Virus record (IMG/VR): IMGVR_UViG_2531839662_000027
Span: 1-15,076 of that record
Direction: 5' to 3' (one strand)
Origin: a virus
Taxonomy: Duplodnaviria > Heunggongvirae > Uroviricota > Caudoviricetes
DNA: 15,076 bases
This document shows, piece after piece, positions 1 through 15,076 of this stretch; positions within the stretch are counted from its first letter, which is position 1; each line of letters begins with the position of its first letter. Under the pieces are notes generated by a model, which was not told where the DNA came from, ran no database searches, and saw only the letters and a program-made list of their open reading frames with translations. The position numbers and the translations under genes are program-made.

Positions 1-952
1 TTATTCAGCCTTAGCAAAAGTGGTCATAGTTGTTCCACTGAAAGTGAATGACCTGTCTGTAAGAGTAACATCCTGAATAGCAAAGTAATCGCCAACACCA
101 GCGCCATTTACATAAAACTCGAATATCTCAGATGTATTTTCCGGAATAATATTATTAGCAATATAACACGTAGATAAAGAACCATTTGTTGATGGTAAAG
201 TTCCAAATAGCGTTGCATCCGATGCAGCATATATCGAACTGCTTAAATAAATATTTATATCAACATTACTCTCATAAGTAACAATTAAGTACACCCGGTC
301 GTTAACCTTCCACCCTCTGTCTTTTATCTTAGTATTAAGTGATAGCTTGTTAGAACTAGGGGTCGTTACGGTATTAATGGTTATTTTTGCTCCTATTGAG
401 TTGTATCTGCTTCTGGTTACTGTATTACCAGTATTGTTCATTGTATAAAGGATTGCTCTGCTTTCTGCAAACGTCCTCATATTAATCTTGCCTAAACAAT
501 CTCCTTCCATAACTTGTGGGCCAGACACAGTTGCACCAATATAACAATTAGTAAATACAGCATGAGCCCTGTTGTCAGTGCTTGATGCAAGTAATGAAAG
601 TTTAAAGTTGCCCTGATCTGCAATCCAGCAACTATCAACCTTAACTACAGCATCATTGTCAAGAACAACAAACCTTCCTCCCTCATTGTAATATCCTACA
701 AAAGCATTTACACCGCTTATTTTTACTACTCCATCTGGAACCGTAAAGATATCGCCTTGTATCGCTTCGCCATAGTACCCGCCAACAATATTGGTCACTC
801 GGGTATTTAAGTACATGCCATGCCCAATGCCGAACTCAAGGTCACATCCAATTAAGCTTAAACCTTCAATAGGGGAAGTACCAGAAGCATAAAAGGCATA
901 TTCACCGACCTTATTTGATGCAAATCCACAGTTATTGAACGTTACGCGGTTG
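1..952 (-). pseudogene. Tailspike gene (P22 gp9-type), C-terminal portion downstream of the IS1 insertion; stop codon at 1-3
   Basis: ORF 1..966 (-) continues in frame from the 1719-2769 fragment once IS1 and one copy of the target duplication are removed; the residues encoded from 966 down to 953 come from the IS1 end. Repetitive Gly/Asn/Val-rich beta-strand-like composition is consistent with a beta-helix receptor-binding domain. Confidence 0.7.
945..952. repeat. Left copy of the 8-bp IS1 target-site duplication (CGCGGTTG)
   Basis: Identical octamer directly flanks both IS1 ends (945-952 and 1719-1726). Confidence 0.7.
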
Positions 953-966
953 GGTAGTGCATCCAA

Positions 967-1362
967 TTAGTAGAACATGTGTTTTTCGATAAACGCTCCG
1001 ATCACTTTTTCGTGGATCTCAACTGAGCGTGAGAAGCAGATTGTTTTACGAGCCAACCGCTTAATGCGGGTGCGTAGCGTCAGATTATTACGCTCAATGC
1101 GTTGGGTGAATATTTTGCCGGTCAGATGCTTATTCTTCGGCACCTCCCGGCCATAGCTGCCCCAGTCATCGCTGGTCAGCATGCCGATGTTGAAGGGTGT
1201 AAGCAGTGCCAGTAGCTCCCGGCACGTTTGATCGGTTCGGGGACCAAAAGTGTAGGCCAGTACACCGCCTGTTTTGGTGTTGTACGCGTACCAGAGCCAG
1301 TGTTGCCGGGCTTTACTGCCAACGTAGCTCCATTGCTCATCAAGCTCGCAGATAAGCGCCAC
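967..1362 (-). CDS. insB: IS1 InsB reading frame (normally expressed as InsAB' transposase by -1 frameshift from insA)
   Basis: Translation aligns by eye with IS1 InsB (motifs ELDEQW.YVG, YTQRIER.NL.LR, SFSKSVE.H.KVIG); lies directly downstream of insA in the -1 frame. Confidence 0.8.
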   Translation of the reverse strand: MALICELDEQWSYVGSKARQHWLWYAYNTKTGGVLAYTFGPRTDQTCRELLALLTPFNIGMLTSDDWGSYGREVPKNKHLTGKIFTQRIERNNLTLRTRIKRLARKTICFSRSVEIHEKVIGAFIEKHMFY

Positions 1363-1388
1363 ATCAGCATGGGCAACAGGCGAAGACG

Positions 1389-1661
1389 TTATTCGCTTTG
1401 GCGCGAGTTTTTTAAAGTCCGGATGACGGTGTTAATACCAATTTTCAGTGTCCTGGCGGTATCGCGAACCCCGGCACCATTAAAGGCCATTTCAGTTATC
1501 AGCTCTTTCATACCCGGCTTACGTGCTTGATAAGTATAAGTGAGCTGAAACACACGGTGGCAGTCACGGCAGCGAAATCTGTCACGGCCTTTAGGGTTCT
1601 GACCATGGCGGTAAACCTGAGCTGACTGACAACGGGGACAATGAATATTAACGCTGGCCAT
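1389..1661 (-). CDS. insA: IS1 InsA (zinc-finger transposition regulator)
   Basis: 90-aa protein with a CPxC...CxxC zinc-finger N-terminus and helix-turn-helix C-terminus, colinear with IS1 InsA (MASV.I.CP.C...); divergent from classical IS1. Confidence 0.85.
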   Translation of the reverse strand: MASVNIHCPRCQSAQVYRHGQNPKGRDRFRCRDCHRVFQLTYTYQARKPGMKELITEMAFNGAGVRDTARTLKIGINTVIRTLKNSRQSE

Positions 1662-1718
1662 GAGATAACCTCAAAAGCCCGTATTATACATCAGATTCAA
1701 CTAATTAGAGGCATCACC

Positions 1719-1726
1719 CGCGGTTG
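1719..1726. repeat. Right copy of the 8-bp IS1 target-site duplication (CGCGGTTG)
   Basis: Identical to 945-952. Confidence 0.7.
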
Positions 1727-2769
1727 TTAGCCCCAGCAAGGTGAACTCCGCGATTTGGCGCAGGAACAAAAGAACAGCAATCATAGGTATTAAGCCAGTC
1801 GTTTATAGTATAGAAGTTCGCCACCACGCCATTGATGAAACGACAATTATGGGTTCTTCCTAGGTGAACATATTGAATTCGGCAAGCATAGTTGGCGATG
1901 TTGTTCCCATCAACTGTAACGTGAGAGATAGATGTGCTACGTCTTATAGAGTCAGTTTCGTAGTACATGTTGACAACTGTCTCTCCAGTGAACCCACTCC
2001 CCGCAATAATGAATGACTTCTCAACGCCATCCCCGAATAGGTCAACAGTGCCTATTGTTAAATCAACTGGTGACTTAACATAGTAAGTTCCTGCAGGGAC
2101 AAACAGCCTCTTTCCTGCCGATAAAGCAACTGCTGCAGCAGCATTAAAGCTAGCTGAGTTATCTGCCGCTGGATCACCAGTAATGGGGAAAAATTGAGCA
2201 ACAGAAATATAATCTGCTACCGTCACTTCGTACCATGGCAAAGCAGGAGATGACGGAAGAGTGCCACTACCACCGGTGTAGATTTTATTATTATACCACC
2301 ACCAGTTATCAACATTAGATAACACCCCCTCCTGCCACACCCCCCCTAACGAGAAATCAAGACCGTAAGAAGTAGCTATCTGACTTAATGATAATGTTGC
2401 TCCTCTGTCAGAAGCTAATTCTTGCCTTAATTGGTCAGGGTCATACTTCAGCACATTAGGAAAATAGAACTGCTGTGCACCATACGCATCATAAACAGCC
2501 ATAGAATGGCCTTGCACAGTTACGAACTTGGCAATCTGTCCGTTATATACCGGATATCCAGCAGCGTTAATGATGATTGGTTGCGAAACAGGAACGTGAG
2601 AGCCGTCTTCGTTCTCCACATAAACCTGAATCTGGTTTTCAGGATTTACAGGGTCAGTGTCAATTTTACCGATATAAATTTTGCCATTGGCTACGGCTTT
2701 AAAAGAACGAGCCATAGTGAAGAGTTGCGAAGGCATGCTTACCACAACATTTGCGGTGATATCTGACAT
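1719..2769 (-). pseudogene. Tailspike gene (P22 gp9-type), N-terminal portion upstream of the IS1 insertion
   Basis: From ATG at 2769-2767 the protein starts [13 protein letters not shown]...[37 protein letters not shown]...[13 protein letters not shown]...NVLKYDPDQ, matching the P22 tailspike head-binding domain as I recall it ([13 protein letters not shown]...). The frame is cut one codon into the IS1 end. The track ORF starts 16 codons earlier at 2817; 2769 is preferred by homology. Confidence 0.8.
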
Positions 2770-2794
2770 TTCATTGCTCCAGACGAATGATATG

Positions 2795-2817
2795 ATGCAA
2801 CCATGATGTGGTTGCAT
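2795..2817. promoter_or_regulatory. Perfect 9-bp inverted repeat (ATGCAACCA-N5-TGGTTGCAT) in the mnt/tailspike divergent intergenic region; candidate repressor operator
   Basis: Arms 2795-2803 and 2809-2817 are exact reverse complements; sits between the divergent start codons of tailspike (2769) and mnt (2891); no T-run on either side, so a terminator is unlikely. Confidence 0.4.
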
Positions 2818-2890
2818 ACCGAAATGGTACTATTGAGTATTTATCCAGTGGGTTACGATGCCATTCCACCCAACTGGTGAGGCATCAAGG

Positions 2891-3151
2891 ATGTACAGCA
2901 AATACGACGATGCGCAGTTTCACTTGAGACTTCCGCATGAACTCCACGCGAAAATTAAACAGCGTGCGAAGATGAATAACAGGTCACTGAACTCAGAGAT
3001 AATTGCAGCGATTGAAGAATCATTGGCTAAACAAAGCTCTGCATCAGTTTACATTGACGATGCAGAGCGTATGGCAGAACAACAATCTGATATGGTTAAG
3101 AAAATTGTCTTTGATACGCTCAAAGAGATATATAAAAAAGACAGCAACTAA
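2891..3151 (+). CDS. mnt: Mnt-like ribbon-helix-helix repressor (Arc/MetJ family)
   Basis: Protein MYSKYDDAQFHLRLPHELHAKIKQRAKMNNRSLNSEIIAAIEESL...DDAERMAEQQSDMVKKIVFDTLKEIYKK resembles P22 Mnt as recalled (..NDAERLADEQSELVKKMVFDTLKDLYKK); P22-like synteny next to the tailspike. Start at 2891 preferred over the track start at 2858 by alignment and a GAGG 9 nt upstream. Confidence 0.7.
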   Translation: MYSKYDDAQFHLRLPHELHAKIKQRAKMNNRSLNSEIIAAIEESLAKQSSASVYIDDAERMAEQQSDMVKKIVFDTLKEIYKKDSN

Positions 3152-3168
3152 CCATCCGTGGCTTTCCG

Positions 3169-5014
3169 TTACTTCTGGTTATCATCACTGTTCATCCAGT
3201 ACATGATGCCTAGCCTTGATATGGTTTTCTTATCTGATTCTGGAAGTGAGTTGTAAAACGAGCGCCAAGCAGAAGAGCGTCTTACAGTTGTATCAACGAT
3301 GCTTTCTGGTGCTTGTTTTACTGCCAGCCTTGCTGCTTTCTGGAATTCTGGTGAGCTAATTAGCTTTTCTGCAGATTCAATTGATTCAGCGCCGCCCATC
3401 GCCCTGATTTTGCTGGCGACTTTTGCCCCAATTTCTGACCCAGCAACAGCACCTACTGCACTGAACGGTCCTGACACAGTTGAACCAACCGCAGTGCCAA
3501 TGCGTTGGGCATGGTTAGCAACAAATTCATTTGCCGCAGTGACGCGATTAAACCGTTTTACGAACTCGTTTAGTCTTCCTGTAGTTATCTCGTAAGATTT
3601 TGCGTCTTTGATAGCCTTTGCGACCTTATATACATCGTTCAGACCTGACATAGTCTCTTTTGGTAAATGTCGGGCAAGATTGCGCATCTGCCCGTTTGCT
3701 AACATGTTTTGATACCAGTCAGCAAACCCTGCAGGATTAAAATCAGCGCCACGTTTTCCGTTCGAAAGCATATCCCGAAGACCTGTTCCCAGTAGCTCGG
3801 TTCTTAGCTTCCTGGACGGCGTGTTTTGCATCAATTCACGAAATCCTTTGGCATCGCCTTTCGACATTGCCTGTAGTGCTGTAGTTGCTTTGCGAGAAAC
3901 ATCACCGTTCAGCGTTCTGCCAGTTAGATTAATCATTTGCTCTTCCATGCTTTTTCGCATCTGAACAAGCCTCTGAGCAACTTCAAAATCACGTAATGCA
4001 TTTGTCTCTGACAGCGCCGCCTTTTGATCATCGGCGAGCGAACCGTAAAGCCTCGATAAAGCAGCGCGATCAGCATCTTTATATGGTCCAGAATTCTTAT
4101 GAAGTGCATCACCAACAAGTCGTCGTTGCTTATTGAGATTTGCATAAGTTAATGCGCCGTTCTTGCCTGGATTAACTGCCCGAAAGACTCTCTTTTCAAT
4201 AGGGTCAAGGTTTTTCATCCCGCCAAGATCTTCTGCCACCTGTTTGAGCATTGACCTTGTTGATGGCGCATCAATTTTTGCACCTGCAGGCATCGCCTTT
4301 TCAACATTGCGATAAAGCTGGTCGCTTCGTTTCATCAGCGCAGACATTCTTCCATTGACCGTATCAATAAACTTGTCGCTCATACCAAGAGCATCTTTTG
4401 CACCGGAAACGCGATCAATTATCTCCCCCGCGCCCTGTGCTAGCTGCCTGATTGCTTCATTTTCCTGCACCTGTAGAGCAGAACCCGCACGGGACTTGAT
4501 TGCTTGCTCAACTGCCTTGTATTGCTCGTTCCCGGAAAAGTGTGAAGGGAGTAATGAATCAACATTAAGCCTTTCAGCAGACTCCAGAACTTCAGCCTGA
4601 GGATTGATATCTAGTTCATCAAGCGATGAAGCGAGATTTGGCCTTTTTTGTGCTGCTACTGTGCGAACGACTTCCTCTGGGTTCCTCGTCGCAGGCGTCA
4701 TTGGTACACCTTGTGCTACTCTTGCCTCTGCGGCATGAACCGCAGGATTTGTTGCTGCAGCGGCATCACCGGAGAATGGTGATGTTTCTGTTGGCGCCGT
4801 GGTCGCTCTCTGTGCAGATGTTTTATTGCCACTAATTATATTTGATGCACCACGAACACCACGGGTAACGCCATTTATCAGGCCATGCGTAGCAATGTTA
4901 AGTCCGGCATTAATAGCGGCATTTTCGGCAAAATCACCCCGTTGATTCGCCGCGTCAGCGAGAGAACCAATGACCATGTTTCCAGCTACACCTGCTCCAG
5001 GAACAAGATAACCG
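3169..5014 (-). pseudogene. Ejection (injection) protein, P22 gp16-like: portion downstream of the IS629 insertion
   Basis: 602-codon frame joins in frame to the 6325-6713 fragment when IS629 plus one CCG copy is removed, giving about 743 codons; last gene of the gp7-gp20-gp16-like series before mnt/tailspike. Confidence 0.55.
5012..5014. repeat. Left copy of the 3-bp IS629 target-site duplication (CCG)
   Basis: CCG immediately flanks both IS ends (5012-5014, 6325-6327); a 3-bp duplication is typical of the IS3 family. Confidence 0.55.
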
Positions 5015-5068
5015 TGAACCGCCCCGGAAATCCTGGAGACTAAACTCCCTGAGAAAGAGGTAAACAGG

Positions 5069-5395
5069 ATGACTAAAAATACTCGTTTTTCCCCCGAAGT
5101 CCGTCAGCGGGCGATTCGTATGGTTCTGGAAAGTCAGGATGAATATGACTCACAGTGGGCGGCAATTTGTTCCATTGCCCCAAAGATTGGCTGTACGCCG
5201 GAGACTCTGCGTGTCTGGGTTCGCCAGCATGAGCGGGATACCGGGGGCGGTGATGGTGGGCTCACCAGCGCTGAACGTCAGCGTCTGAAAGAGCTGGAAC
5301 GTGAAAATCGTGAACTGCGCCGCAGTAACGATATCCTTCGCCAGGCTTCCGCTTATTTTGCGAAGGCGGAGTTCGACCGCCTCTGGAAAAAATGA
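5069..5395 (+). CDS. IS629 OrfA (helix-turn-helix, leucine-zipper transposase N-terminal part)
   Basis: 108-aa ORF, IS3-family OrfA architecture; sequence recognised as IS629 OrfA. Confidence 0.9.
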
Positions 5396-6282
5396 TGCCA
5401 CTGCTGGATAAGCTGCGTGAGCAGTACGGGGTCGGACCGGTATGTAGCGAACTGCATATTGCCCCGTCAACGTATTACCATTGTCAGCAACAGCGACATC
5501 ATCCGGATAAACGCAGTGCCCGTGCGCAGCACGATGACTGGCTGAAGAAAGAGATACAGCGCGTATACGATGAAAATCACCAGGTATACGGTGTGCGTAA
5601 AGTCTGGCGTCAGTTGTTACGGGAAGGTATCAGAGTGGCCAGATGCACTGTGGCACGTCTCATGGCAGTTATGGGACTTGCCGGTGTTCTCCGGGGTAAA
5701 AAGGTCCGCACTACCGTCAGCCGGAAAGCCGTTGCCGCAGGCGACCGCGTAAACCGTCAGTTCGTGGCAGAACGACCTGACCAGCTGTGGGTGGCTGATT
5801 TTACTTACGTCAGCACATGGCAGGGCTTCGTCTATGTGGCGTTTATCATTGATGTGTTTGCCGGATACATCGTGGGGTGGCGGGTCTCATCGTCTATGGA
5901 AACGACATTCGTGCTGGATGCGCTGGAGCAGGCGTTGTGGGCCCGTCGTCCGTCTGGCACCATCCATCACAGCGATAAAGGCTCTCAGTATGTGTCACTG
6001 GCCTATACGGAGCGACTAAAAGAAGCCGGATTACTGGCATCAACAGGGAGTACAGGCGACTCGTATGACAACGCGATGGCTGAGAGCATCAATGGTCTTT
6101 ACAAAGCGGAGGTAATACACCGTAAGAGCTGGAAAAACCGTGCAGAAGTGGAACTGGCCACACTAACGTGGGTGGACTGGTATAACAATCGACGATTGCT
6201 GGGAAGGCTGGGCCATACTCCTCCGGCAGAAGCAGAAAAAGCTTATTATGCTTCCATCGGAAACGATGATCTGGCAGCCTGA
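5392..6282 (+). CDS. IS629 OrfB (DDE catalytic domain; expressed as OrfAB by -1 frameshift)
   Basis: 296-aa ORF overlapping orfA by ATGA; integrase-like DDE region (..[16 protein letters not shown]..). Confidence 0.9.
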
Positions 6283-6324
6283 GTTCACAGATAAAACACT
6301 CTCCAGGAAACCCGGGGCGGTTCA

Positions 6325-6327
6325 CCG
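6325..6327. repeat. Right copy of the 3-bp IS629 target-site duplication (CCG)
   Basis: See 5012-5014. Confidence 0.55.
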
Positions 6328-6713
6328 CCTATTGACTCTCCAGCTTGCGCGTAGGGGTCTGTCGGTCTGTCTACTGGACGATAAACATCATCCAATACTT
6401 TTGGCCCCCCAAGCCCCTGACTGATTGCATTAATCAGACTTGCGCCACCCTGCAATACGTCAAATGGTATGTTTACCAGACCACGACCAGCCTGTTCTGC
6501 AATTTGCCCTGCACTTTGACCACCAGTGAGCCAATCGCCAGCTTGTTGCATCAATGATGGTTCTTCCCGTGTTGGTGCATTATTGGCCTGATTAACTGTT
6601 TGTTGCTGAACAGCCTGACCAGCAAAATACTCATCAATGGCGGTGCCAATATCTTCGGTGCTCGTACCATCAGGGAAGGTAAATGTCTTACCGTTTGCAG
6701 TTACTTTCATCAT
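6325..6713 (-). pseudogene. Ejection protein gp16-like: N-terminal portion upstream of the IS629 insertion
   Basis: Start ATG at 6713-6711 overlaps the stop of the upstream gene (ATGA coupling); native coding runs to 6325, and the last 13 codons of the track ORF (6285-6323) are read from the IS629 end. Confidence 0.55.
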
Positions 6714-8116
6714 TCCACCGTAAATTGAATGCCTGATTTTGAGGTATATGATCCAACCTGATTCCTTGGTTCTCCTGAAGGTGTCGAATCTTGTGCTGGC
6801 GCTGCGTCAGTATTCATTGACATATACCGCTTAACGGCACTCCCCAATGATTCACCTTTTTTAACATCCAACCCCAATATCTGACCGCCATTACGCGATT
6901 GTCCTGGATTGCCATTCGCGCTCATCCACTCGGCTTTAAACTCATTAAACTGCGCGTTTCGTCGCTCAAGGTTTGCCATCGCATCAAGCCATCTTGCGAC
7001 CGTCTCAGGGTTATCCATGTCAGTTGGCGCACCCTGTCGAACGATCTCAACGTCTTTATCCGTTGCTGGGCCGGGAGGTAGGAATTTAAGAACCTGACTG
7101 TTAACAAGGGCATTTTGGCGAATGCGCAAATCACGCAATGTTGTATCGCTTCCGGTAAGTTTTGCGAACATGTTCTGTGCGTTACCGAACAAACCTGTCG
7201 TTGGTTTTTCTGCTCTGAACTGTTGAGCAAGCGCACTCATAGAATTGGCTGAGTTTGATGATGCTGTAGCATTGTTTACAGCCGTCTCGATGCCTTTTTC
7301 CATGTTTACTGACAGCTTAGGTGCTTCGCTAATCAACTGCTGAGCCTTTTCCTGCGCTTGCTGCATCTTAAACCCGAACTCTTGCTGATCCAGAGCCAAG
7401 CGTTGTGCTGCGATATTGTGCCCTGTCATTGCTGACTGATAGGAAAGGTTTTGCCCTCTCGCCTGAAGTGCCTCGCCAGCCTGATTGCTGCGGATTGTCT
7501 CTGCCAGCCTGCCTCGGTCAATCTCACGACCAGCCATCTTGTCCTGAACATTGAAGTAGTCAATCGGACCGAGAGCAGCCATCCCAAGGTGATCAACAAA
7601 CTCACCAAATCCTGAAGGATTCTGCTGATACATCTGAGCAACGCTGTTAGGGTCAACACCGACGCGAGTCAGTTCCTTGGCGTTGTTTTGCAGCCATGAT
7701 TGCATTGCTTCTGGAGACGATGACGCAAGGCGTGCGCCAGCCGCTAAGGTGCCGATAGAATTGCGCTGGTCTTCATCAATGAATCCCATGCCTTTACGAA
7801 CGGATTCAATCTGGTCTGGATATTGAGTAGCCAACTGACGCAAAGCACCGCGATCACCAGACGCATAAGCATTAGCGTACGCCTGCTGAAATTCTTTCTG
7901 CCGCTGAGCCTGCTTTTCCTGCTGAAACACCCCTGCAATGCCTGAAAGGCCTTGCAAAGCAGTAAGCCCAACATTGTTAGCGCCTGAACGCTCAATATCA
8001 TTGTTCTGCCTGATAAGCTGAAGCGTATTGCCGATGTCATTTACGCTCGGAGCGTTTGAGTTGACGCCGCCGATACCAGCTAACAATCCGCCATTTGATC
8101 CTTGCCAAGTAGCCAT
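6710..8116 (-). CDS. Ejection (injection) protein, P22 gp20-like, 468 aa
   Basis: Size nearly identical to P22 gp20 (471 aa as recalled), Gln/Ala-rich helical composition, position between the gp7-like and gp16-like genes, translationally coupled at both ends. Assigned by synteny and size, not by a verified alignment. Confidence 0.6.
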
Positions 8117-8125
8117 GATTACCCC

Positions 8126-8504
8126 TTAAAACAACGAGCCAAGCAATCCGATACCAGCACCAATGCCAGCGCCCCAAGGTGTTGATGTTCCCAAAAGGCT
8201 GGCAAGACCTGCACCGGCAATCGCACCAGACGTTCCGCCACTAATTGCTGTCTGAAGACTTGATGGTTTGTTGGCATTAGCAGCGGCAAGAGCTGCGCTT
8301 TGCTGTGCAATGCTGCTCATGTTGTTGGCGTACGTCTGCCCGGCGTTTGCCTGACCTTGCAGAGCACCAAGCCCAACGTTTGCCAGATTGTTGTAATTGC
8401 TCATCTGGTTTGATAACCAAGACTGACCGAGAGTCGGCGCGATCGTAGCCAGTTGATTGCTTGTGGCTGTCGAACCAAGTCCTCCCGTAACCGCGAGGCA
8501 TCGA
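8126..8504 (-). pseudogene. 3' fragment of a gp7-like ejection protein gene, 5'-truncated at the deletion junction
   Basis: The open frame runs into cro-derived DNA in a frame different from cro; the first 17 codons of track ORF 8126..8554 are cro DNA read out of frame, so no native start or RBS remains. C-terminus is Gly/Ala-rich and hydrophobic. Confidence 0.45.
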
Positions 8505-8582
8505 CTATACGCCGAGATCTTTAGCTGTCTTGGTTTGACCAAAGCGCATTGCATAATCTTTCAGAGTTATGCGTTGTTCCAT
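8505..8582 (-). pseudogene. cro: cro, truncated after codon 25 by a deletion junction
   Basis: Minus strand reads CATGTACTAAGGAGGTTGTATGGAACAACGCATAAC...AAAGATCTCGGCGTATAG: lambda cro RBS and first 25 codons (MEQRITLKDYAMRFGQTKTAKDLGV), then a stop where lambda has TAT CAA AGC; sequence 3' of 8505 is unrelated to cro. Confidence 0.8.
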
Positions 8583-8606
8583 ACAACCTCCTTAGTACAT
8601 GCAATT

Positions 8607-8676
8607 ATTATCACCGCTAGAGGTAAAATAGTCAACACGCACGGTGTTAGATATTTATCCCTTGCGGTGATAGATT
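8607..8676. promoter_or_regulatory. Lambda-type right operator: oR1 (8609-8625), oR2 (8633-8649), oR3 (8656-8672), with pR (minus strand) and pRM (plus strand)
   Basis: 17-bp operators TATCACCGCTAGAGGTA, CAACACGCACGGTGTTA and TATCCCTTGCGGTGATA match lambda oR1/oR2/oR3 with one change in oR1; pRM-like TAGATA (8648-8653) and TAGATT (8671-8676) precede a leaderless cI ATG at 8683; pR -35/-10 read on the minus strand at 8635-8630 and 8612-8607. Confidence 0.85.
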
Positions 8677-8679
8677 TAA

Positions 8680-9396
<717 letters not shown>

Positions 9397-9403
9397 CACG
9401 TAA

Positions 9404-9841
9404 ATGATTAAAGAACGTATTTCTTATATCATTCCGATTGCGATGGATGAAGGCAACCCCGTAACTCCAGTTCTTATCTATGAAATGGATAAAGACTCCC
9501 ATGAAGTGGATCTGTCATTTGGCGCTTTTTTTATCGGCCTTAAGGCTACAAAAAAATATTCCATAGGCATTGAGGTTTTCAATGCTCAAGAAATACCGAT
9601 ACCAATTGACACAAAACTGTACTCCAACCATAAGTTTTTTACGGTAGCAGAAGCCAACGATGGAGAAACCATCGTATCAACTTCTATGAGAATTAACTTC
9701 CCAAGGGTGAAAATTATCAAGCCTGGGATATTCGAAGTTAGAGCATCACTGGTTAATCCTGAGAAAGGCGAAGTAATTGATGTAAAAAGTTCGTTTTTTG
9801 ACGTGAAGATAACAGGATCAGTTCGCGATGAGTTTAGATAA
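9404..9841 (+). CDS. Hypothetical 145-aa protein in the rex position (first gene of the cI-linked module)
   Basis: ATG 7 nt after the cI stop, no terminator between; no transmembrane segment evident; AT-rich; no similarity to RexA that I can recognise. Confidence 0.6.
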   Translation: MIKERISYIIPIAMDEGNPVTPVLIYEMDKDSHEVDLSFGAFFIGLKATKKYSIGIEVFNAQEIPIPIDTKLYSNHKFFTVAEANDGETIVSTSMRINFPRVKIIKPGIFEVRASLVNPEKGEVIDVKSSFFDVKITGSVRDEFR

Positions 9842-10199
9842 CAAGGTTGCTCAGCTTCGTCCAAATCAAAACATATCTCGCCCAATTGGACACTATTCCA
9901 CTGATGATGCATACTCACGGCATGGTGGAGGAAACGGCGGAGGTAACATGCTTGAGGCTAGAGTTGCAAAGCTAGAGTCTGATGTTGAATACATCAAGCG
10001 CGATCTCGCTGAGGTAAAGTCAGATATAAAATCTGTTGATTCTCGTCTGTCAGGTATTGAGACAAGCATTAGCTCAGCAAAAACCACCATTAAGGCATCT
10101 GCGGTCGTTGTCAGTTTCGTGTTCGCATTTTGCGCCTACATTTTTGGAAGTTATGTTTCCAAAATCCTTGATGCCTTAAACGGACTCGTTCTTAAGTAA
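9828..10199 (+). CDS. Hypothetical small membrane protein (123 aa, or 80 aa from the internal start at 9958): Gly-rich linker, coiled coil, C-terminal hydrophobic segment
   Basis: Overlaps the previous ORF by 14 nt; heptad-like LEARVAKLESDVEYIKRDLAEVKSDIKSVDSRL; hydrophobic AVVVSFVFAFCAYIFGSYV; internal ATG at 9958 is preceded by GGAGGTAAC; a strong terminator follows. Confidence 0.6.
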   Translation: MSLDNKVAQLRPNQNISRPIGHYSTDDAYSRHGGGNGGGNMLEARVAKLESDVEYIKRDLAEVKSDIKSVDSRLSGIETSISSAKTTIKASAVVVSFVFAFCAYIFGSYVSKILDALNGLVLK

Positions 10200-10206
10200 C
10201 ACACAA

Positions 10207-10233
10207 CCCGGCCTCAGTGCCGGGTTTTCTTTG
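10207..10233 (+). terminator. Rho-independent terminator ending the cI operon (t-imm equivalent)
   Basis: Perfect 6-bp GC stem CCCGGC/GCCGGG with 6-nt loop followed by TTTTCTTTG, directly after the second rex-slot ORF. Confidence 0.7.
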
Positions 10234-10383
10234 CCTCTCGATCCCCCTTCCCAACAACACATAACCATTTGTATTTATTGGAAAACTAATAGATACAACT
10301 TGCTAAACAGTGCAATTCTGATCCCTCACCTACCTAACAATTCACCCCTGCAAAAAATAAATCCATATAAAAAACATACAGAT

Positions 10384-10446
10384 AACCATCTGCGGTGATA
10401 AATTATCTCTGGCGGTGTTGACACAAATACCACTAGCGGTGATACT
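10384..10446 (+). promoter_or_regulatory. Lambda-type left operator and pL: oL3 (10384-10400), oL2 (10404-10420), oL1 (10428-10444); pL -35 TTGACA (10418-10423), -10 GATACT (10441-10446)
   Basis: AACCATCTGCGGTGATA, TATCTCTGGCGGTGTTG and TACCACTAGCGGTGATA match lambda oL3/oL2/oL1 as recalled; 17-bp spacer between -35 and -10; oriented toward N. Confidence 0.85.
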
Positions 10447-10491
10447 AAACACATCAGCAGGAAGCTGGAAGCCAAACGGAACAGATTGGCA

Positions 10492-10526
10492 TGCTCTTTA
10501 ACTTCGATGGGGCGCTGACAAAGCGC
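10492..10526 (+). promoter_or_regulatory. nutL site: boxA (TGCTCTTTAAC, 10492-10502) and boxB hairpin (GCGCT-GACAA-AGCGC, 10512-10526), P22 type
   Basis: boxA-like motif followed 9 nt later by a 5-bp stem/5-nt loop hairpin whose sequence matches the P22 boxB as I recall it; located between pL and the N-like gene. Confidence 0.7.
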
Positions 10527-10645
10527 AAACAGATACCAAACGAGATGGGTTTGGCGGTGATGTGAATTGCAGCAGTAACGACAGCAACCAGAAGATCAGC
10601 ATCTGGCGCATCACCACCAAAGCTATTTCACATGAGGAAAACATC

Positions 10646-10954
10646 ATGACGGTAATCGTGTACGGAAAATCAACATTTGCAGGAAATGCCAAGACTCGCC
10701 GTCATGAGCGGCGCAGAAAGCTGGCCATCGAGCGTGATTCCATCTGCAACATCATCGATTCGATCTTCGGCGCAGACAGTGAGGAGCCTGTTCAGGAAGC
10801 CCCGAGAAAACGTTTAAGCCTTTCTGAAAAAGCAATATCACTCGGAATCCTTCGCTGCAAGAAGGCAGATGAATGCAGTGGAAGTATTTGCCTGCCAAAC
10901 GTAGCCATTTACGCGGCAGGCTACCGGAAATCAAAACAACTGACGGCGAGGTAA
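10646..10954 (+). CDS. N: N-family transcription antiterminator, P22 gene 24 type
   Basis: Arginine-rich motif GNAKTRRHERRRKLAIERD near the N-terminus matches the P22 N RNA-binding peptide as recalled; ATG at 10646 preceded by GAGGA; first gene after pL/nutL. The track ORF from 10562 is an upstream in-frame extension, judged not used. Confidence 0.8.
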   Translation: MTVIVYGKSTFAGNAKTRRHERRRKLAIERDSICNIIDSIFGADSEEPVQEAPRKRLSLSEKAISLGILRCKKADECSGSICLPNVAIYAAGYRKSKQLTAR

Positions 10955-11182
10955 GTGATGAATCAGACATACATTCCATCATGCTTGAGAAATCTGCCAA
11001 AGCAGAAAGCAAAGCCCCGCAAGCAAGCCATAAAGGACGCTAAGGCAGAGGTTATTGATCAAGCAATACAATTGCTCAGGGAGGAGTTAAGAAGTGGCAA
11101 GCTCGAAGGAATGATGATGCCCTATCAGCGCGGATATCTATCGGCGATTAGTAAGTTGGAAGTACTGAAGAGTGAATTATGA
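10955..11182 (+). CDS. Hypothetical 75-aa basic/helical protein
   Basis: ORF starting GTG-ATG immediately after the N stop (coupled); no recognisable motif. Confidence 0.45.
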   Translation: MMNQTYIPSCLRNLPKQKAKPRKQAIKDAKAEVIDQAIQLLREELRSGKLEGMMMPYQRGYLSAISKLEVLKSEL

Positions 11183-11244
11183 ACTATCTGGAATTTCCGG
11201 ATGGTTCATTGTTTTGGCAGCAAACCACTTATTTGAGGTGATAT

Positions 11245-11331
11245 ATGGAAGAAGAATTTGAAGAGTTCGAAGAGCATCCTCAGGATGTGATGGAACAATA
11301 CCAGGACTATCCTTATGACTACGACTATTGA
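11245..11331 (+). CDS. Possible micro-ORF encoding a 28-aa highly acidic, aromatic peptide (MEEEFEEFEEHPQDVMEQYQDYPYDYDY)
   Basis: ATG preceded by GAGGTGATAT; the 3' end overlaps the ral start by 17 nt; below the ORF-track length cutoff. Confidence 0.3.
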   Translation: MEEEFEEFEEHPQDVMEQYQDYPYDYDY

Positions 11332-11515
11332 TAAAAATCAATGGTGTGGACAATTCAAGCGATGCAATGGATGCAAGCTGCAATCGGAATGCATGGTTAA
11401 ACCTGAAGAAATGTTTCCTGTAATGGAGGATGGGAAATATGTCGATAAATGGGCAATACGAACGACGGCAATGATTGCCAGAGAACTTGGTAAACAGAAT
11501 AACAAGGCTGCCTGA
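11315..11515 (+). CDS. ral: Ral, restriction alleviation protein (66 aa)
   Basis: Translation MTTTIDKNQWCGQFKRCNGCKLQSECMVKPEEMFPVMEDGKYVDKW... matches lambda Ral as I recall it; expected position in the pL operon downstream of N. Confidence 0.8.
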   Translation: MTTTIDKNQWCGQFKRCNGCKLQSECMVKPEEMFPVMEDGKYVDKWAIRTTAMIARELGKQNNKAA

Positions 11516-11574
11516 TGGTGGCCTTTGTTTTTTGGCCGTAAATAATTTCATGCTTATTACAATCAAGGGGATAT

Positions 11575-11820
11575 ATGGAAGAACAAGCAAACAAGATTCT
11601 CGTAGAACTACTGCAAAAAGCCAGTAATGGAATAGACGCGGCTGTTTCATTTAGCCAGGCACAGATTCCTGATGTCATCCATCAGCTTTTGATGTGGCAC
11701 GCCGTATCATCAGCTGGAATTCAGGCTACATGGTCAGACGAAGAATTCATTCGTCAGATGAACAAAATGCTCAATCAGCACAAAGAACAGGAGAAAGATG
11801 ATGATTCTGACTCTGAATGA
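11575..11820 (+). CDS. Hypothetical 81-aa protein with a strongly acidic C-terminal tail (EQEKDDDSDSE)
   Basis: ATG preceded by AAGGGGATAT; overlaps the next ORF. Confidence 0.5.
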   Translation: MEEQANKILVELLQKASNGIDAAVSFSQAQIPDVIHQLLMWHAVSSAGIQATWSDEEFIRQMNKMLNQHKEQEKDDDSDSE

Positions 11821-12109
11821 TAAGCGTGAAATATCGCAAATAATCGCAAGTTTTACTGATGAAGATTACGAGCGAATCAACAGTGAAGTTGATCGTCTCT
11901 GCAAACGTTGCGACCCAATAAGCGAAATGCTTCGCTCATATAAACCAGATGAACACACTAAGGACGCTATCGACTGGCTGGAAGATGATGACTGTAACTA
12001 TCAGGAAAAAGCCGCTGAATGGTTCTGGGATGCAATAACCGAAAGAGTTAAGGCTGAATATGCCTTCGCAATATTCAAACGCAGACACATTTATGGAGAA
12101 GCAGCATGA
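11798..12109 (+). CDS. Hypothetical 103-aa acidic protein
   Basis: ATG preceded by GGAGAAAG; ATGA-coupled to recT downstream. Confidence 0.5.
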   Translation: MMILTLNDKREISQIIASFTDEDYERINSEVDRLCKRCDPISEMLRSYKPDEHTKDAIDWLEDDDCNYQEKAAEWFWDAITERVKAEYAFAIFKRRHIYGEAA

Positions 12110-13017
12110 GCAATATCGTTGAATTCGTTAAACAGCAGGAGCAGTTATTCTGCGGAGCATTGACTGAACAGACGGTGACATGGGCTAAGGAAAGCCAGTT
12201 TGCAATTCAGTATTTCCAGAAAAATGATTACCTGGCTAAAACGGCACTGGCAAATCCAACCAGCGCACAGAACGCCATCATCAATGTTGCGGCGATCGGC
12301 ATCACCTTAAACCCGGCTAGCAAACTGGCTTATCTGGTTCCGCGCGACGGCATGGTGTGCCTTGATATCAGTTATATGGGATTGCTCCATATTGCAATGG
12401 AGTCTGGTGTTATCTCATGGGGTCAGGCAAAACTTGTTCATGCTAACGATACCTATGAGTCAAACGGGCTTGATAAAGCACCAACCCATAAATACAACGC
12501 CTTCGGTGATCGTGGTGATATCGTTGGCGTTTACTGCACAGTTAAGACGCCAGCAGGTGATTATCTAACGGAAGAGATGAGTCTGGCTGAAATTGAGGCT
12601 GTAAGGAAAACAAGCAAGGCGGCATTCAGCGATAAAGGACCATGGGTAAATCACTGGAATGAGATGGCGCGAAAGACGGTCGTAAAGCGTGCAAGCAAGT
12701 ATTGGCCTAAGGCATCACGTCTTGATAGTGCTATTCACGTACTAAACGAAGAAGAAGGTGTGTGGACTGAACCAGTTATGCCGCACAAATCAGAGGAAGA
12801 TATCCGCGAAGATGAACGGAAACGCCAGCAGGAAATAACGGATAAAGCACAACTTCTTTGTGATGAAATGGATCAGGCAGAAAACATGGATGATTTGAAG
12901 CGATATTTTGCAGAAGCATATCGCCTGACATCTGGAATGAAATTGCAGCAGAACGTACAAGCCATTTACATAGAATGCAAAGCGAAACTGGAGGTTGCCA
13001 GTGAGCAAACTGTATGA
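12106..13017 (+). CDS. recT: RecT-family single-strand annealing protein
   Basis: Conserved block GPWVNHWNEMARKTVVKRASKYWP resembles the RecT signature (GPWVTHWEEMAKKTAIRRLFKYLP in Rac RecT as recalled); size and position typical of a phage recombination module. Confidence 0.8.
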   Translation: MSNIVEFVKQQEQLFCGALTEQTVTWAKESQFAIQYFQKNDYLAKTALANPTSAQNAIINVAAIGITLNPASKLAYLVPRDGMVCLDISYMGLLHIAMESGVISWGQAKLVHANDTYESNGLDKAPTHKYNAFGDRGDIVGVYCTVKTPAGDYLTEEMSLAEIEAVRKTSKAAFSDKGPWVNHWNEMARKTVVKRASKYWPKASRLDSAIHVLNEEEGVWTEPVMPHKSEEDIREDERKRQQEITDKAQLLCDEMDQAENMDDLKRYFAEAYRLTSGMKLQQNVQAIYIECKAKLEVASEQTV

Positions 13018-13483
13018 AATTGCCAATGAATACGCAAAATTGATGGATTCAGATTTAGAACCAGAGATGATTGCTGACACAATAGAAGGCATGGAAGGAG
13101 AATTTACCGATAAAATAGAGCAACTTCTTTCCGTCATTAAAAATGAATCTGGTTATGCTGAACGCCTCAAGGAAGAGGCAAAGTCACTGAATGAGCGAGC
13201 CGCAGTAATTCAAAATAAGATTGACAGCATCAAATCATATATAGCGTCATCGCTTGAAATGGTTGGCAAGAAAAATATTCGAGCAGGTATTCACCAGGTA
13301 ACAATCCGCAAACCGTCAGAAATTGTAGAAATCATCGACTCAAGCGCCCTTCCTCCTGAATACGTTGAGTTCGAAACGACAATTAAAGCCGACAAACTGG
13401 CAATCAAACACCAACTAAAAGCAGGAATAAATATCCCCGGTGCTCAACTCAAAGTTGGGAAACCTTCACTTCTTATCAAATAA
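13001..13483 (+). CDS. Sipho_Gp157-like protein (recombination-associated partner of RecT)
   Basis: Pattern LYEI..EY..L...LEPE...DT.EG.EGEF..K.E.........Y.....EEAK.L.ER...IQ.KI...K.Y.....E.VGKK.I......V.IRK.....VEIID...LP.EYV.......KADK.AIK..LKAG..IPGA matches the Gp157 family as I know it. GTG at 13001 with GGAGG 6 nt upstream preferred over the track TTG start at 12995. Confidence 0.65.
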   Translation: MSKLYEIANEYAKLMDSDLEPEMIADTIEGMEGEFTDKIEQLLSVIKNESGYAERLKEEAKSLNERAAVIQNKIDSIKSYIASSLEMVGKKNIRAGIHQVTIRKPSEIVEIIDSSALPPEYVEFETTIKADKLAIKHQLKAGINIPGAQLKVGKPSLLIK

Positions 13484-13494
13484 CGGTATCGCCT

Positions 13495-13809
13495 ATGAAA
13501 AAGACTCCATGGGAGAAATGGGAAGTCGATTTCTTGCGCGAAGTAGCGGCGACAATGCCAGTTGAAGTTATTGCTGAAAAACTGGAAAGGACTGAAAAAG
13601 CAGTAATGGCGAAAGCAACAAGGATTGGCGCTGACATTGTTAGCCGACTTCGTGGAAGACGATGGACAAGAGCCGAAGTATCACTTTTCGGTAAGTTCTC
13701 CGCAGAAGAAATAGCAATTGCAACCTGCCGCTCAATTTATTCAGTAAGGGCTATGCGATACAAGCTAAAAAAACTCGATGAAGAAAGAGCAGGCATACGA
13801 ATAAATTAA
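13495..13809 (+). CDS. Hypothetical 104-aa protein with two internally repeated helix-rich halves
   Basis: Halves [39 protein letters not shown] and [39 protein letters not shown] share a W-x2-EV-x-F ... A/S-V-x-A-x-x-R spacing. Confidence 0.5.
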
Positions 13810-13825
13810 CAAAGAGGAATTTACC

Positions 13826-13993
13826 ATGAGAGGACTTGCATACAATCCCGGCATTCTTCCGGCAGAAATGATTATTCGCCAACGCGTAAAGCCAATGCCA
13901 TCGAGAGAGGAATTGCTAAAGAGAAAGAGTTTCGGTTCTGTTAATGACAACAAATATCTGAATGCGATGTGGCGTAAAGGAGGCAAGCAGTGA
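13826..13993 (+). CDS. Possible small ORF (55 aa, basic)
   Basis: ATG preceded by AAAGAGGAA at good spacing; below the ORF-track cutoff. Confidence 0.3.
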
Positions 13994-14295
13994 GTAATTC
14001 CGCACGACTACAGCTTGGTTTTTCACCGCTATCAAAAACTATCATGCTGGCAAAAATGCGCGATGTTGAAGGTGGACGTATGCGCGTTGGCAATGATCCA
14101 GGTCGTGATGCACGAAGAAAAGACAATAACAATCCTCGCACTCGCGGGGATTTCTTTTATCTGAACTCGCTACGGCGGGTTTTGTTTTATGTAGATGATA
14201 AATGCACTTCAGAGTCACAGGTGAATGGAATGGAGAGCCATTCAACAGAGTTATCGAAGCAGAGAACATCAACGACTGCTATGACCACTGGATAA
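13990..14295 (+). CDS. Doubtful ORF (GTG start, 101 aa, low-complexity Arg/Asp/Asn-rich)
   Basis: Open frame only; competing antisense ORFs; composition not protein-like in places. Confidence 0.2.
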
Positions 14296-14357
14296 TATGG
14301 GCGCAGATAGCACATGCAGACATAACCAATATTCGAATTGAAGAACTGAAAGAACAC

Positions 14358-14383
14358 CAAGCCGCCTGATGGCGGTTTTTTTA
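14358..14383 (+). terminator. Rho-independent terminator
   Basis: AAGCCGCC-TGAT-GGCGG stem-loop followed by TTTTTTT (14376-14382). Confidence 0.65.
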
Positions 14384-14396
14384 TTGGAGACAAGAA

Positions 14397-14741
14397 ATGT
14401 CAGATTTGGCTATGAAGGTTTTGAAATGGCAATCGACTGGCGATGTTGGCATCAGTAGCGCAACTCTTGCCTCAATCGCATGTGGACTGAAAAAGAATAT
14501 CTATGGTCATAGCTTCGGTGCTCCACATGACGCAGCCGATTTCCGACGATGCGTTGCGCTTGTCGAGCAGATTCCAGAAATCAGAGATTCATTCGACAAG
14601 GTTGCAAAGCGCGTTCCGGCATTCAAAGGCATCCTCAACGAATGGGATTCTCTCGTTGCTCTGTTGAAGTCTGAAATGAAGATACACGGAAACAAAGCGC
14701 CAGAGACTTACAGAAGAATCAGCGAGCTACGCAAGGACTAA
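14397..14741 (+). CDS. Hypothetical 114-aa protein
   Basis: ORF beginning 14 nt after the terminator T-run; no recognisable motif. Confidence 0.5.
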   Translation: MSDLAMKVLKWQSTGDVGISSATLASIACGLKKNIYGHSFGAPHDAADFRRCVALVEQIPEIRDSFDKVAKRVPAFKGILNEWDSLVALLKSEMKIHGNKAPETYRRISELRKD

Positions 14742-14743
14742 CT

Positions 14744-14839
14744 ATGGAATCACACGGCCTCACACTCGATGAGGCCTGTCAGTTTCTCAAGATATCCAGA
14801 CCTACCATCGCCGCATCAATGCGGTTTTTTATTACCTGA
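14744..14839 (+). other. 31-codon ORF whose first 24 codons look like the helix-turn-helix start of an excisionase/AlpA-type protein, ending in a terminator hairpin; possible gene remnant
   Basis: MESHGLTLDEACQFLKISRPTIAA resembles the N-terminus of AlpA/Xis-type proteins and the core of the ORF at 14876; the remaining codons run into a hairpin plus T-run. Confidence 0.3.
14811..14833 (+). terminator. Rho-independent terminator-like hairpin
   Basis: CCGCA-TCAA-TGCGG followed by TTTTTTATT. Confidence 0.5.
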
Positions 14840-14875
14840 TTTGCAGGTTCGATTCCCTATTCGGAGATAGCACTC

Positions 14876-15076
14876 ATGCAACACGAACTACAGCCTGATT
14901 CCCTGGTTGATTTGAAATTCATCATGGCTGATACTGGCTTTGGTAAAACCTTCATCTACGACCGGATTAAGTCCGGCGACCTGCCAAAAGCCAAAGTTAT
15001 CCACGGACGAGCAAGATGGTTATATCGTGACCATTGTGAATTCAAAAATAAGCTCTTAAGCCGCGCCAATGGGTAA
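14876..15076 (+). CDS. Excisionase/AlpA-family small DNA-binding protein (putative Xis), 66 aa
   Basis: Core L.FIMADTGFGKTFIYDRIKSGDLPKAKVIHGRARWLYRD..EF fits the AlpA/Xis winged-helix pattern; position at the distal end of the pL operon, where int would follow beyond the window. Confidence 0.55.
   Translation: MQHELQPDSLVDLKFIMADTGFGKTFIYDRIKSGDLPKAKVIHGRARWLYRDHCEFKNKLLSRANG

Follow-up and report, generated by a model that had tools for sequence, protein, structure and literature searches.

Three small genes around ral in a defective lambdoid prophage: a candidate Gam analogue, a deletion chimera and a conserved early gene

What is the role of the small, unnamed proteins encoded around the restriction alleviation gene ral in a lambdoid pL operon? 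The question is raised by a 15,076-nucleotide (nt) stretch of Caudoviricetes DNA, IMG/VR record IMGVR_UViG_2531839662_000027 (positions 1 to 15,076, hereafter the window), in which three open reading frames (ORFs A, B and C) between positions 10,955 and 12,109 had been put forward, in a sequence-only reading, as candidate anti-defence or host-modulating factors. We favor the view that these are three unrelated things: ORF C a functional analogue of Gam, ORF B the product of a deletion, and ORF A a conserved early gene. Lambda Gam blocks RecBCD, the host nuclease that acts on DNA ends, and we propose, with a probability of roughly 0.55-0.6, that ORF C inhibits the same enzyme. The earlier proposal gains inferential support for ORF C in this way, but the three ORFs do not stand as equivalent candidates. 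They are arranged in the window as follows.

10958..11182, + strand: ORF A, encoding a basic protein of 74 amino acids (aa) (phrog_5305, E 4.8e-38)
11575..11728, + strand: left part of ORF B, the 5' 154 nt (51 codons) of a phrog_3054 gene, by DNA identity to SPN9CC_0015
11731..11820, + strand: right part of ORF B, codons 7-35 and the stop of a 35-aa peptide gene (MSFTDNWSDEEFIRQMNKMLNQHKEQEKDDDSDSE), by DNA identity to HK140 and Gally
11801..12109, + strand: ORF C, a 102-aa acidic five-helix protein and predicted Gam-fold RecBCD inhibitor, the first gene of a RecT module

The three ORFs exist on the + strand as described, with plausible ribosome-binding sites and tight coupling. ORF A has GAGG 7 nt 5' of its start, and its ATG lies 3 nt past the N stop codon; ORF B is preceded by a GGGG Shine-Dalgarno-like run; ORF C begins about 20 nt before the end of ORF B, and its own stop overlaps the RecT start in the sequence ATGA. 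ORF B has the extent originally assigned to it (11575-11820, 81 aa, C-terminal EQEKDDDSDSE). The frames of ORF A and ORF C are also right, but their starts are more probably the ATG at 10958 (74 aa; the start used by RefSeq and by each of the 17 homologues aligned) rather than the GTG at 10955 (75 aa), and the second ATG at 11801 (102 aa, as in RefSeq and the family) rather than 11798 (103 aa). Two of the products are strongly acidic, as had been stated (ORF B, isoelectric point (pI) 4.52; ORF C, pI 4.65; net charge -9 for each), and that of ORF A is basic (pI 9.72, net +6). ral (11315-11515) is indeed flanked, by ORF A on its 5' side and ORF B on its 3' side. The earlier reading could not name any of the three, and they are unnamed in every library and record that we checked: the remote-homology scans that it had called for (Pfam, PHROGs and NCBIfam) returned function-less PHROG families only. 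The exact sequences of ORF A, ORF C and the intact 35-aa peptide each occur in at least 1000 contigs and that of ORF B in 61; together with full-length PHROG matches, these counts mark ORF A and ORF C as more than chance reading frames.

Residues 2-103 of ORF C match positions 1-102 of 102 of the function-less family phrog_3486 (E 1.7e-59), and HMMER, run exhaustively over 1.84 billion cluster representatives, recovered 48 relatives at E<=1e-3. The 33 family members that were aligned are 97-107 aa long, share as little as 27% identity and are all acidic (pI 4.4-5.5), with a median net charge of -9 as compared to -7 for the GamL family. A C-terminal E-A/V-A is conserved, and in the window the codons for these residues hold the Shine-Dalgarno sequence and start of recT. 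Gene position was compared for ten diverged representatives and three further phages. A recombination module lies directly 3' of the ORF C homologue in all 13 informative contexts, and the homologue overlaps or abuts the next gene in each but one, which has a 5-nt gap. cIII is usually found just 5' of these homologues, and no Gam match was present among the neighboring genes with precomputed Pfam hits. In the window, the rest of the module consists of three genes.

12106..13017, + strand: RecT-family single-strand annealing protein (Pfam RecT, E 2.7e-32)
13001..13483, + strand: Sipho_Gp157 family protein, 'Mu Gam-like end protection' according to PHROGs (Pfam PF05565, E 2.4e-37; phrog_253)
13495..13809, + strand: 104-aa basic protein of a 'D5-like regulator' family, the last conserved gene of the module (phrog_11492, phrog_323)

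The order ORF C-RecT-Gp157 is shared by the window, HK140, Gally and loci L011 and L034, and at L032 the place of RecT is taken by a 281-aa gene without a Pfam match. Loci L008, L009, L028 and L030/L031, Cronobacter phage ENT47670 and Erwinia phage Midgardsormr38 instead have ORF C followed by RecT and a YqaJ/exonuclease gene, which is the order of lambda gam-bet-exo, with RecT as the partner where lambda Gam has Bet. In L006 the order is ORF C-DUF3799 nuclease-RecT, and in SEN22, whose ORF C homologue is 96% identical, ORF C is followed by RecE, with no recognised annealing protein. The likeness of the X-RecT-exonuclease order to gam-bet-exo gave rise to the hypothesis that ORF C occupies the position of Gam, and a test for a Gam/GamL fold was set before the fold results were obtained. 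The head-of-module position typical of the Gam family (after cIII/kil and before the annealing-protein gene) is held by ORF C in 13 of 13 contexts.

GamL of phi80 and HK639 (NF033500, PF28165) is an acidic protein of 93-94 aa that sits in the exact ORF C slot, before an orthologous RecT: the RecT of the window is 68% identical to that of HK639 and 59% identical to phi80 Rec. Like GamL, ORF C lies directly upstream of a SAP-4-type RecT gene. HK639 has the order kil-GamL-RecT-Gp157-regulator, with the same Gp157 and regulator genes 3' as in the window (62.5% identity for Gp157) and with DNA homology to the window that starts 18 nt inside recT, and phi80 has the order gamL-rec-exo. On these grounds, ORF C and GamL are two alternative cassettes of a single slot. 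Gam and GamL are reported to share a predicted fold despite unrelated sequences (PMC12315714).

The predicted structure of ORF C agrees with its position. The model has a GamS-type helical fold, and its top structural match among 48,164 PDB chains was GamS itself (lambda Gam; PF06064; PDB 2UUZ), at only 15% identity in the structural alignment; on the strength of this model we consider a Gam-like fold highly probable. From the conservation of the family, its gene position and the predicted fold, we infer that ORF C binds and inhibits RecBCD. ORF C heads the RecT recombination module and is translationally coupled to it; by blocking RecBCD it would shield linear phage DNA and recombination intermediates, and DNA ends would be left to the phage RecT pathway. 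The earlier failure to match the three ORFs to known pL genes would then have an explanation for one of them: ORF C is most likely the functional counterpart of gam, given its Gam-like fold and gam/gamL position.

Several results weigh against this reading. Pfam Gam (PF06064) matched neither ORF C nor any of the 33 family members at E<=1, in a library that detects lambda Gam at E 9.5e-65, and the Pfam scan of the 33 members gave scattered noise only. The NCBIfam model phi80_GamL (NF033500) did not match ORF C either (phi80 GamL control, E 4e-44), and the conserved N-terminal MNAYLTYDRIE and C-terminal CPF of GamL are absent from ORF C. With hhalign, the ORF C family reached a probability of 0.2% against a 23-sequence GamL profile, a non-significant score against a single GamL sequence, and 3% against lambda Gam over 19 columns, a local match that covers DDDxxFQE..AE at the start of the last helix. 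A Foldseek search of ORF C against BFVD returned 73 matches at E<=10; among the best 50, many of which are unnamed, none is named Gam, and the matches listed include one probable family member and a weak match to phage Edno5, which was not reached by tblastn with the most distant ORF C homologue. Sequence-profile searches of the PDB with the ORF C and ORF A families found nothing below E 0.05, the chance matches being S15, MntR, eIF2B and RelA. Furthermore, the longest helix of the ORF C model is C-terminal and its N-terminal helix is broken, whereas the DNA-mimicking helix of GamS is reportedly N-terminal, so that the mimicry surface may differ. Finally, the module already holds the 'MuGam-like' Gp157, which could make an anti-RecBCD role of ORF C redundant, although HK639 possesses both GamL and Gp157. 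Given the failed sequence tests, we do not file ORF C in the Gam or GamL family and propose instead that it works like them.

Two other roles for ORF C deserve weighing against inhibition of RecBCD. It could assist the recombinase or exonuclease as an Arf-like cofactor for the loading or action of RecT/RecE; translational coupling of ORF C to the first recombination gene is seen throughout, P22 has a small accessory gene, arf, at the corresponding place, and Gp157 may already provide end protection within the module. The downstream partners are diverse, however, comprising RecT proteins (45-68% identity), a DUF3799 nuclease, RecE and the 281-aa Pfam-less gene, and this diversity, which extends to a RecE module devoid of any recognised annealing protein, is more in keeping with a host target and makes an accessory role less likely. 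The best structural match is moreover GamS and no recombinase cofactor, and ORF C swaps with GamL inside an otherwise orthologous module; we therefore hold a cofactor role to be unlikely. The acidity that is uniform across the family, the failed tests for membership in Gam and GamL, and the abundance of anti-defence genes such as ral in the pL region would also suit an acidic DNA mimic or decoy for some other host system (restriction, SbcCD or a defence nuclease), in which case the Gam likeness would reflect merely a small helical architecture. This is more improbable again, as the strict linkage of ORF C is with recombination modules and not with ral or other anti-defence genes, and as GamS was the single best match in the entire set of PDB chains.

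Inhibition of RecBCD by ORF C would alter how several phages are classified. A 2025 survey of 325 lambdoid phages describes four anti-RecBCD types, Gam, GamL, Abc2 and MuGam, and scores HK140 as MuGam only and SEN22 in the class without an anti-RecBCD (PMC12315714); the ORF C family, which all records call hypothetical, is not recognised as anti-RecBCD in the part of that survey accessible to us. SEN22 has no Chi sites according to Table 1 of the survey (PMC12315714), which, together with its 96%-identical ORF C, would fit a phage that inhibits RecBCD. If our reading is correct, both SEN22 and HK140 would carry a Gam analogue and their classifications, as well as the reported link of Chi-site abundance to the absence of an anti-RecBCD, would need revising. 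We give even odds to the broader proposal that the ORF C family is a third, unrecognised lineage of Gam-fold RecBCD inhibitors, joined to a speculative extension to ORF A that is set out below; if so, the lineage would be widespread at the head of RecT/RecE modules in phages of Enterobacterales. Inhibition of RecBCD decides the survival of linear phage DNA and the recombination pathway that is used, and it is sensed by bacterial 'guard' defences such as retron Ec48 and P2 Old. A short, sequence-distinct inhibitor paired with RecT could also serve recombineering.

ORF B, the second acidic product, is composite. Its residues 1-53 match phrog_3054 only over positions 1-53 of 137, residues 52-78 match phrog_17766 (E 1.1e-10) and residues 52-66 match phrog_2123 (E 4.7e-4), and by tblastn about 855 bp separate the two halves in P22-like phages of Salmonella. 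At the DNA level, window positions 11565-11728 are 98.8% identical to the 5' end (codons 1-51) of SPN9CC_0015, and from 11731 on the sequence is 98.8-99.1% identical to HK140 and Gally just 5' of their ORF C. The breakpoint is located at 11728/11731, with a junction microhomology of at most a few bases, and both parents are found intact among SPN9CC, Gally and HK140. The left parent encodes a 121-aa protein whose two transmembrane (TM) helices begin right after residue 51, and the two-TM proteins of phrog_3054 (Sf6 gene 34, SPN9CC_0015 and Gally GALLYPH_30) have full products of 121-149 aa. Residues 1-51 of ORF B are identical by eye to those of SPN9CC_0015 and 100% identical to the N7 and HK633 homologues, but the homology stops before the first TM helix, and the full-length two-TM architecture of phrog_3054 was not found in ORF B, its TM segments being deleted.

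An in-frame deletion of about 0.6-0.8 kb fused codon 51 of the two-TM gene to codon 7 of the 35-aa peptide gene. The resulting protein is devoid of both TM helices and of the first six residues of the peptide, and its acidic tail is simply the tail of the peptide that precedes ORF C in intact phages. In comparison with Gally, the deletion takes the rest of the membrane-protein gene along with a cIII homologue. ORF B is an in-frame deletion chimera of two genes and not a conserved protein, and it is probably a scar, non-functional as a protein in its own right. Homology to proteins of unrelated function and lack of conservation had been named in advance as what would tell against the original proposal; only the latter was found, and for ORF B alone. 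By remaining in frame, ORF B would let ribosomes keep reaching the overlapping start of ORF C. More generally, it cautions that an attractive acidic small ORF may be a deletion scar.

At least three different backgrounds, all of them defective prophages, carry the fusion, and it sits at two integration sites. It is consequently not a private lesion of E. coli UMNF18, the source of the window sequence (see below), although it has not diversified, and its persistence and movement among backgrounds raise the possibility that it is tolerated or even useful. A functional new chimera under selection, for example one that keeps an activity like that of gp33 of HK446, could draw on the in-frame fusion with its good Shine-Dalgarno sequence, on the several backgrounds and two attachment sites, and on the retention of most of the conserved WSDEEFIRQM motif common to HK446 gp33, a trigger of Old. 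Yet the 90% cluster holds only two near-identical sequences, the exact protein is limited to 61 contigs, a single complete E. coli genome of 5426 has the arrangement, one parent has lost both its TM helices and the other its first six residues, all hosts examined are defective prophages, and translational coupling to ORF C can explain why the frame was kept. Selection for a new protein is accordingly improbable, and we retain the deletion scar as the better account of ORF B. Two of the loci with the fusion (L023 and L026) carry the ral-ORF B-ORF C-RecT block in defective prophages with a differing repressor/Cro/CII region, in which the replication O gene is fused straight to ejection genes like genes 14/7/20/16; one of the two occupies the other integration site and has its own integrase.

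The right parent of ORF B, MSFTDNWSDEEFIRQMNKMLNQHKEQEKDDDSDSE, comes from a small ORF that lacks annotation in both Gally and HK140 and whose stop overlaps the ORF C start. It shares 16 of its first 21 residues, as well as its gene position, with HK446 gp33 (MSFTDNWSDEEFIRQM...), whereas the C-terminal halves are unrelated. In ORF B this gp33-type N-terminal module (MSFTDNWSDEEFIRQM) is internal, without MSFTDN and behind 51 foreign residues. HK75 gp33, which HK446 encodes as well, is reported to set off the P2 Old defence by itself and has been proposed to manipulate RecBCD (2026 preprint, bioRxiv 10.64898/2026.07.10.737580). P22 Arf has FSDEEFI near its N-terminus and the same gene position, with only the SDEEFI motif in common with the 35-aa peptide, and Pfam Phage_Arf (PF17585) matched neither the peptide nor HK446 gp33 at E<=1 (P22 Arf control, E 1.9e-35). 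In many lambdoid phages the interval from cIII/kil to the recombination genes holds a small gene whose start, MSFTDNWSDEEFI(R)QM, is conserved and whose tail varies (35, 56 or 60 aa), for instance at L003 2400-2537, L001 3001-3138 and L005 3243-3455; in SPN9CC an ORF of another frame is annotated in its place.

In contrast to ORF B, ORF A is a genuine and widely conserved phage gene, judging from its homologues. Residues 2-75 match positions 1-71 of 71 of phrog_5305, and 40 homologues with 61-100% identity were found in E. coli, Shigella, Enterobacter, Citrobacter and Leclercia. Across 18 aligned sequences 27 columns are invariant, including YxRGYxSAIS in the second helix. By tblastn ORF A is present in 44 phage records, always as a 'hypothetical protein', and its carriers include the temperate lambdoids mEp506, mEpX2, mEp213 and HK225, the virulent siphophages Sasha, swi2 and Bas81/82, and Vibrio and Pseudomonas phages. 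An AlphaFold2 model (pLDDT 85) consists of an N-terminal basic tail rich in Lys, Arg and Pro, which is probably flexible, and a helical hairpin (helices 21-45 and 54-73). Foldseek with this model against the PDB found generic helical hairpins only (E>1), and the profile and fold searches of ORF A (NCBIfam, PDB) gave nothing specific. Its surroundings, from the promoter to the end of ral, are as follows.

10418..10446, + strand: pL-like sigma-70 promoter match (TTGACA-17-GATACT) 5' of the N-like gene, from a consensus scan alone (10/12 matches)
10646..10954, + strand: N-like antiterminator, 102 aa in RefSeq, with the reading frame open from 10562 (Pfam N_peptide, E 2e-40; phrog_271)
11179..11209, + strand: perfect 14-bp hairpin followed by UUGUUUUGG, a candidate tL1-like terminator or other conserved element (free energy (dG) -21 kcal/mol, z -5.45; terminator scan)
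11245..11331, + strand: very acidic 28-aa ORF, MEEEFEEFEEHPQDVMEQYQDYPYDYDY, overlapping the ral start (phrog_16060, E 7e-19)
11315..11515, + strand: ral (restriction alleviation), 66 aa (Pfam Ral, E 1.6e-48)
11504..11525, + strand: terminator-like hairpin and U-run at the end of ral (dG -15.2, z -2.6)

The clean, widespread ORF A takes the earliest place in the operon. In HK225 no other gene separates it from the annotated pL promoter; this, its location 3 nt after N and the strong hairpin on its 3' side suggest that ORF A is expressed with N at the onset of infection. The perfect 14-bp hairpin ATGAACTATCTGGAATTTCCGGATGGTTCAT begins at the stop codon of ORF A, and a U-rich run comes after it. 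Its 18-nt core, GGAATTTCCGGATGGTTC, is also found directly 3' of the ORF A homologue of Midgardsormr38 (L022 1302-1330), although the identity between the ORF A proteins of the two is just 55%. The Erwinia copy has no U-run, and 'immediate-early' is for this reason a provisional label for ORF A. The hairpin may act as a terminator, as a processing site or as a palindrome bound by a protein, or it may code for a peptide. Its region also encodes the start of a short ORF, MNYLEFPDGS... (window 11179-11241). In mEp506 the stretch equivalent to 11179-11331 is annotated as one 50-aa ORF ending in the acidic 28-aa peptide (phrog_16060), and in the window an in-frame TGA at 11239 splits an ORF of this type into a 20-aa and a 28-aa ORF.

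As for what ORF A does, we suggest with low confidence that it acts as a small adaptor, with the basic arm contacting nucleic acid or an acidic host protein. More speculatively, ORF A and the hairpin at its stop codon may form a new immediate-early module that acts on or with N-dependent early expression, or against early defence. The possibility that ORF A is an immediate-early anti-defence or host-takeover factor, one that for example blocks a nuclease or RNA-targeting defence when pL fires, and not a regulator of phage expression, is favored by its place between N and the first strong hairpin (and first in the HK225 pL operon), by its spread as a movable small gene through temperate and virulent phages of several genera, and by its strong conservation. 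It is made doubtful by the lack of likeness to any known anti-defence protein or fold in our searches and by the basic character of ORF A, which is unlike that of acidic DNA-mimic anti-restriction proteins such as Ocr and ArdA.

The setting of the three ORFs is, by gene order and gene content, the lambdoid pL operon of a defective P22-like prophage; the pL operon itself had been rightly recognised in the sequence-only reading. On the + strand the genes run N-like, ORF A, the 28-aa acidic ORF (orf28-like), ral, ORF B, ORF C, RecT, Sipho_Gp157 and the 104-aa basic protein. Bases 10900-12150 are 100% identical to the chromosome of the porcine strain E. coli UMNF18, the one genome among the 5426 complete E. 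coli genomes with the whole arrangement; pieces of it occur in 1875. In RefSeq, the UMNF18 prophage is a defective P22-like element flanked by argW/intS and dsdC, with a tailspike and with ejection-protein genes of which one is frameshifted and bears an insertion sequence (IS). The 1.7 kb around the three ORFs is a mosaic of segments that are 96-99% identical to differing lambdoid and P22-like phages, and the coverage by any single phage record is at most 54%. When the window proteins were compared by BLASTP with those of the P22 pL region (Arf, Kil, C3, gp17, orf78, orf87, Abc1 and Abc2), ral was the sole match; this ruled out ORF A as P22 orf78 and ORF C as P22 gp17, though the latter two are of equal length. 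Literature searches by protein accession and on the mEp phages returned no functional data for these genes.

An Rfam scan of the region around the three ORFs found no RNA families, and a 157-aa minus-strand ORF at 11177-11650 that covers ral completely is probably spurious. The 104-aa protein at 13495-13809 is 91% identical to SEN22_30, and its Gally homologue is labelled 'Anti-RecBCD protein 1, similar to P22 Abc1'. The protein was rejected as an Abc1, since BLASTP against P22 Abc1 showed no similarity and PHROGs groups it with D5-like regulators.

Upstream of the operon, a truncated Cro/CI-family gene abuts a truncated DNA-transfer protein gene in RefSeq (window ~8119-8680; L004 9227-9683); a large deletion has therefore taken the replication, lysis and head genes, and the prophage is a remnant. 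This junction is followed by a LexA-family repressor gene and then by the leftward early operon (RefSeq). At 5069-6282, two overlapping ORFs have transposase and rve integrase domains, and an ALIL pseudoknot (Rfam RF01497, 119 bits) lies between them at 5350-5466; this element is an IS, by our reading of the IS3 family, inserted in a P22 gp16-like ejection-protein gene. Between the repressor gene and the pL-like promoter, two further, functionally unannotated ORFs of 145 and 123 aa (9404-10199) end at a terminator-like hairpin (10205-10226) in the place of rexA/rexB in lambda, and the 123-aa product has a hydrophobic segment near its C-terminus.

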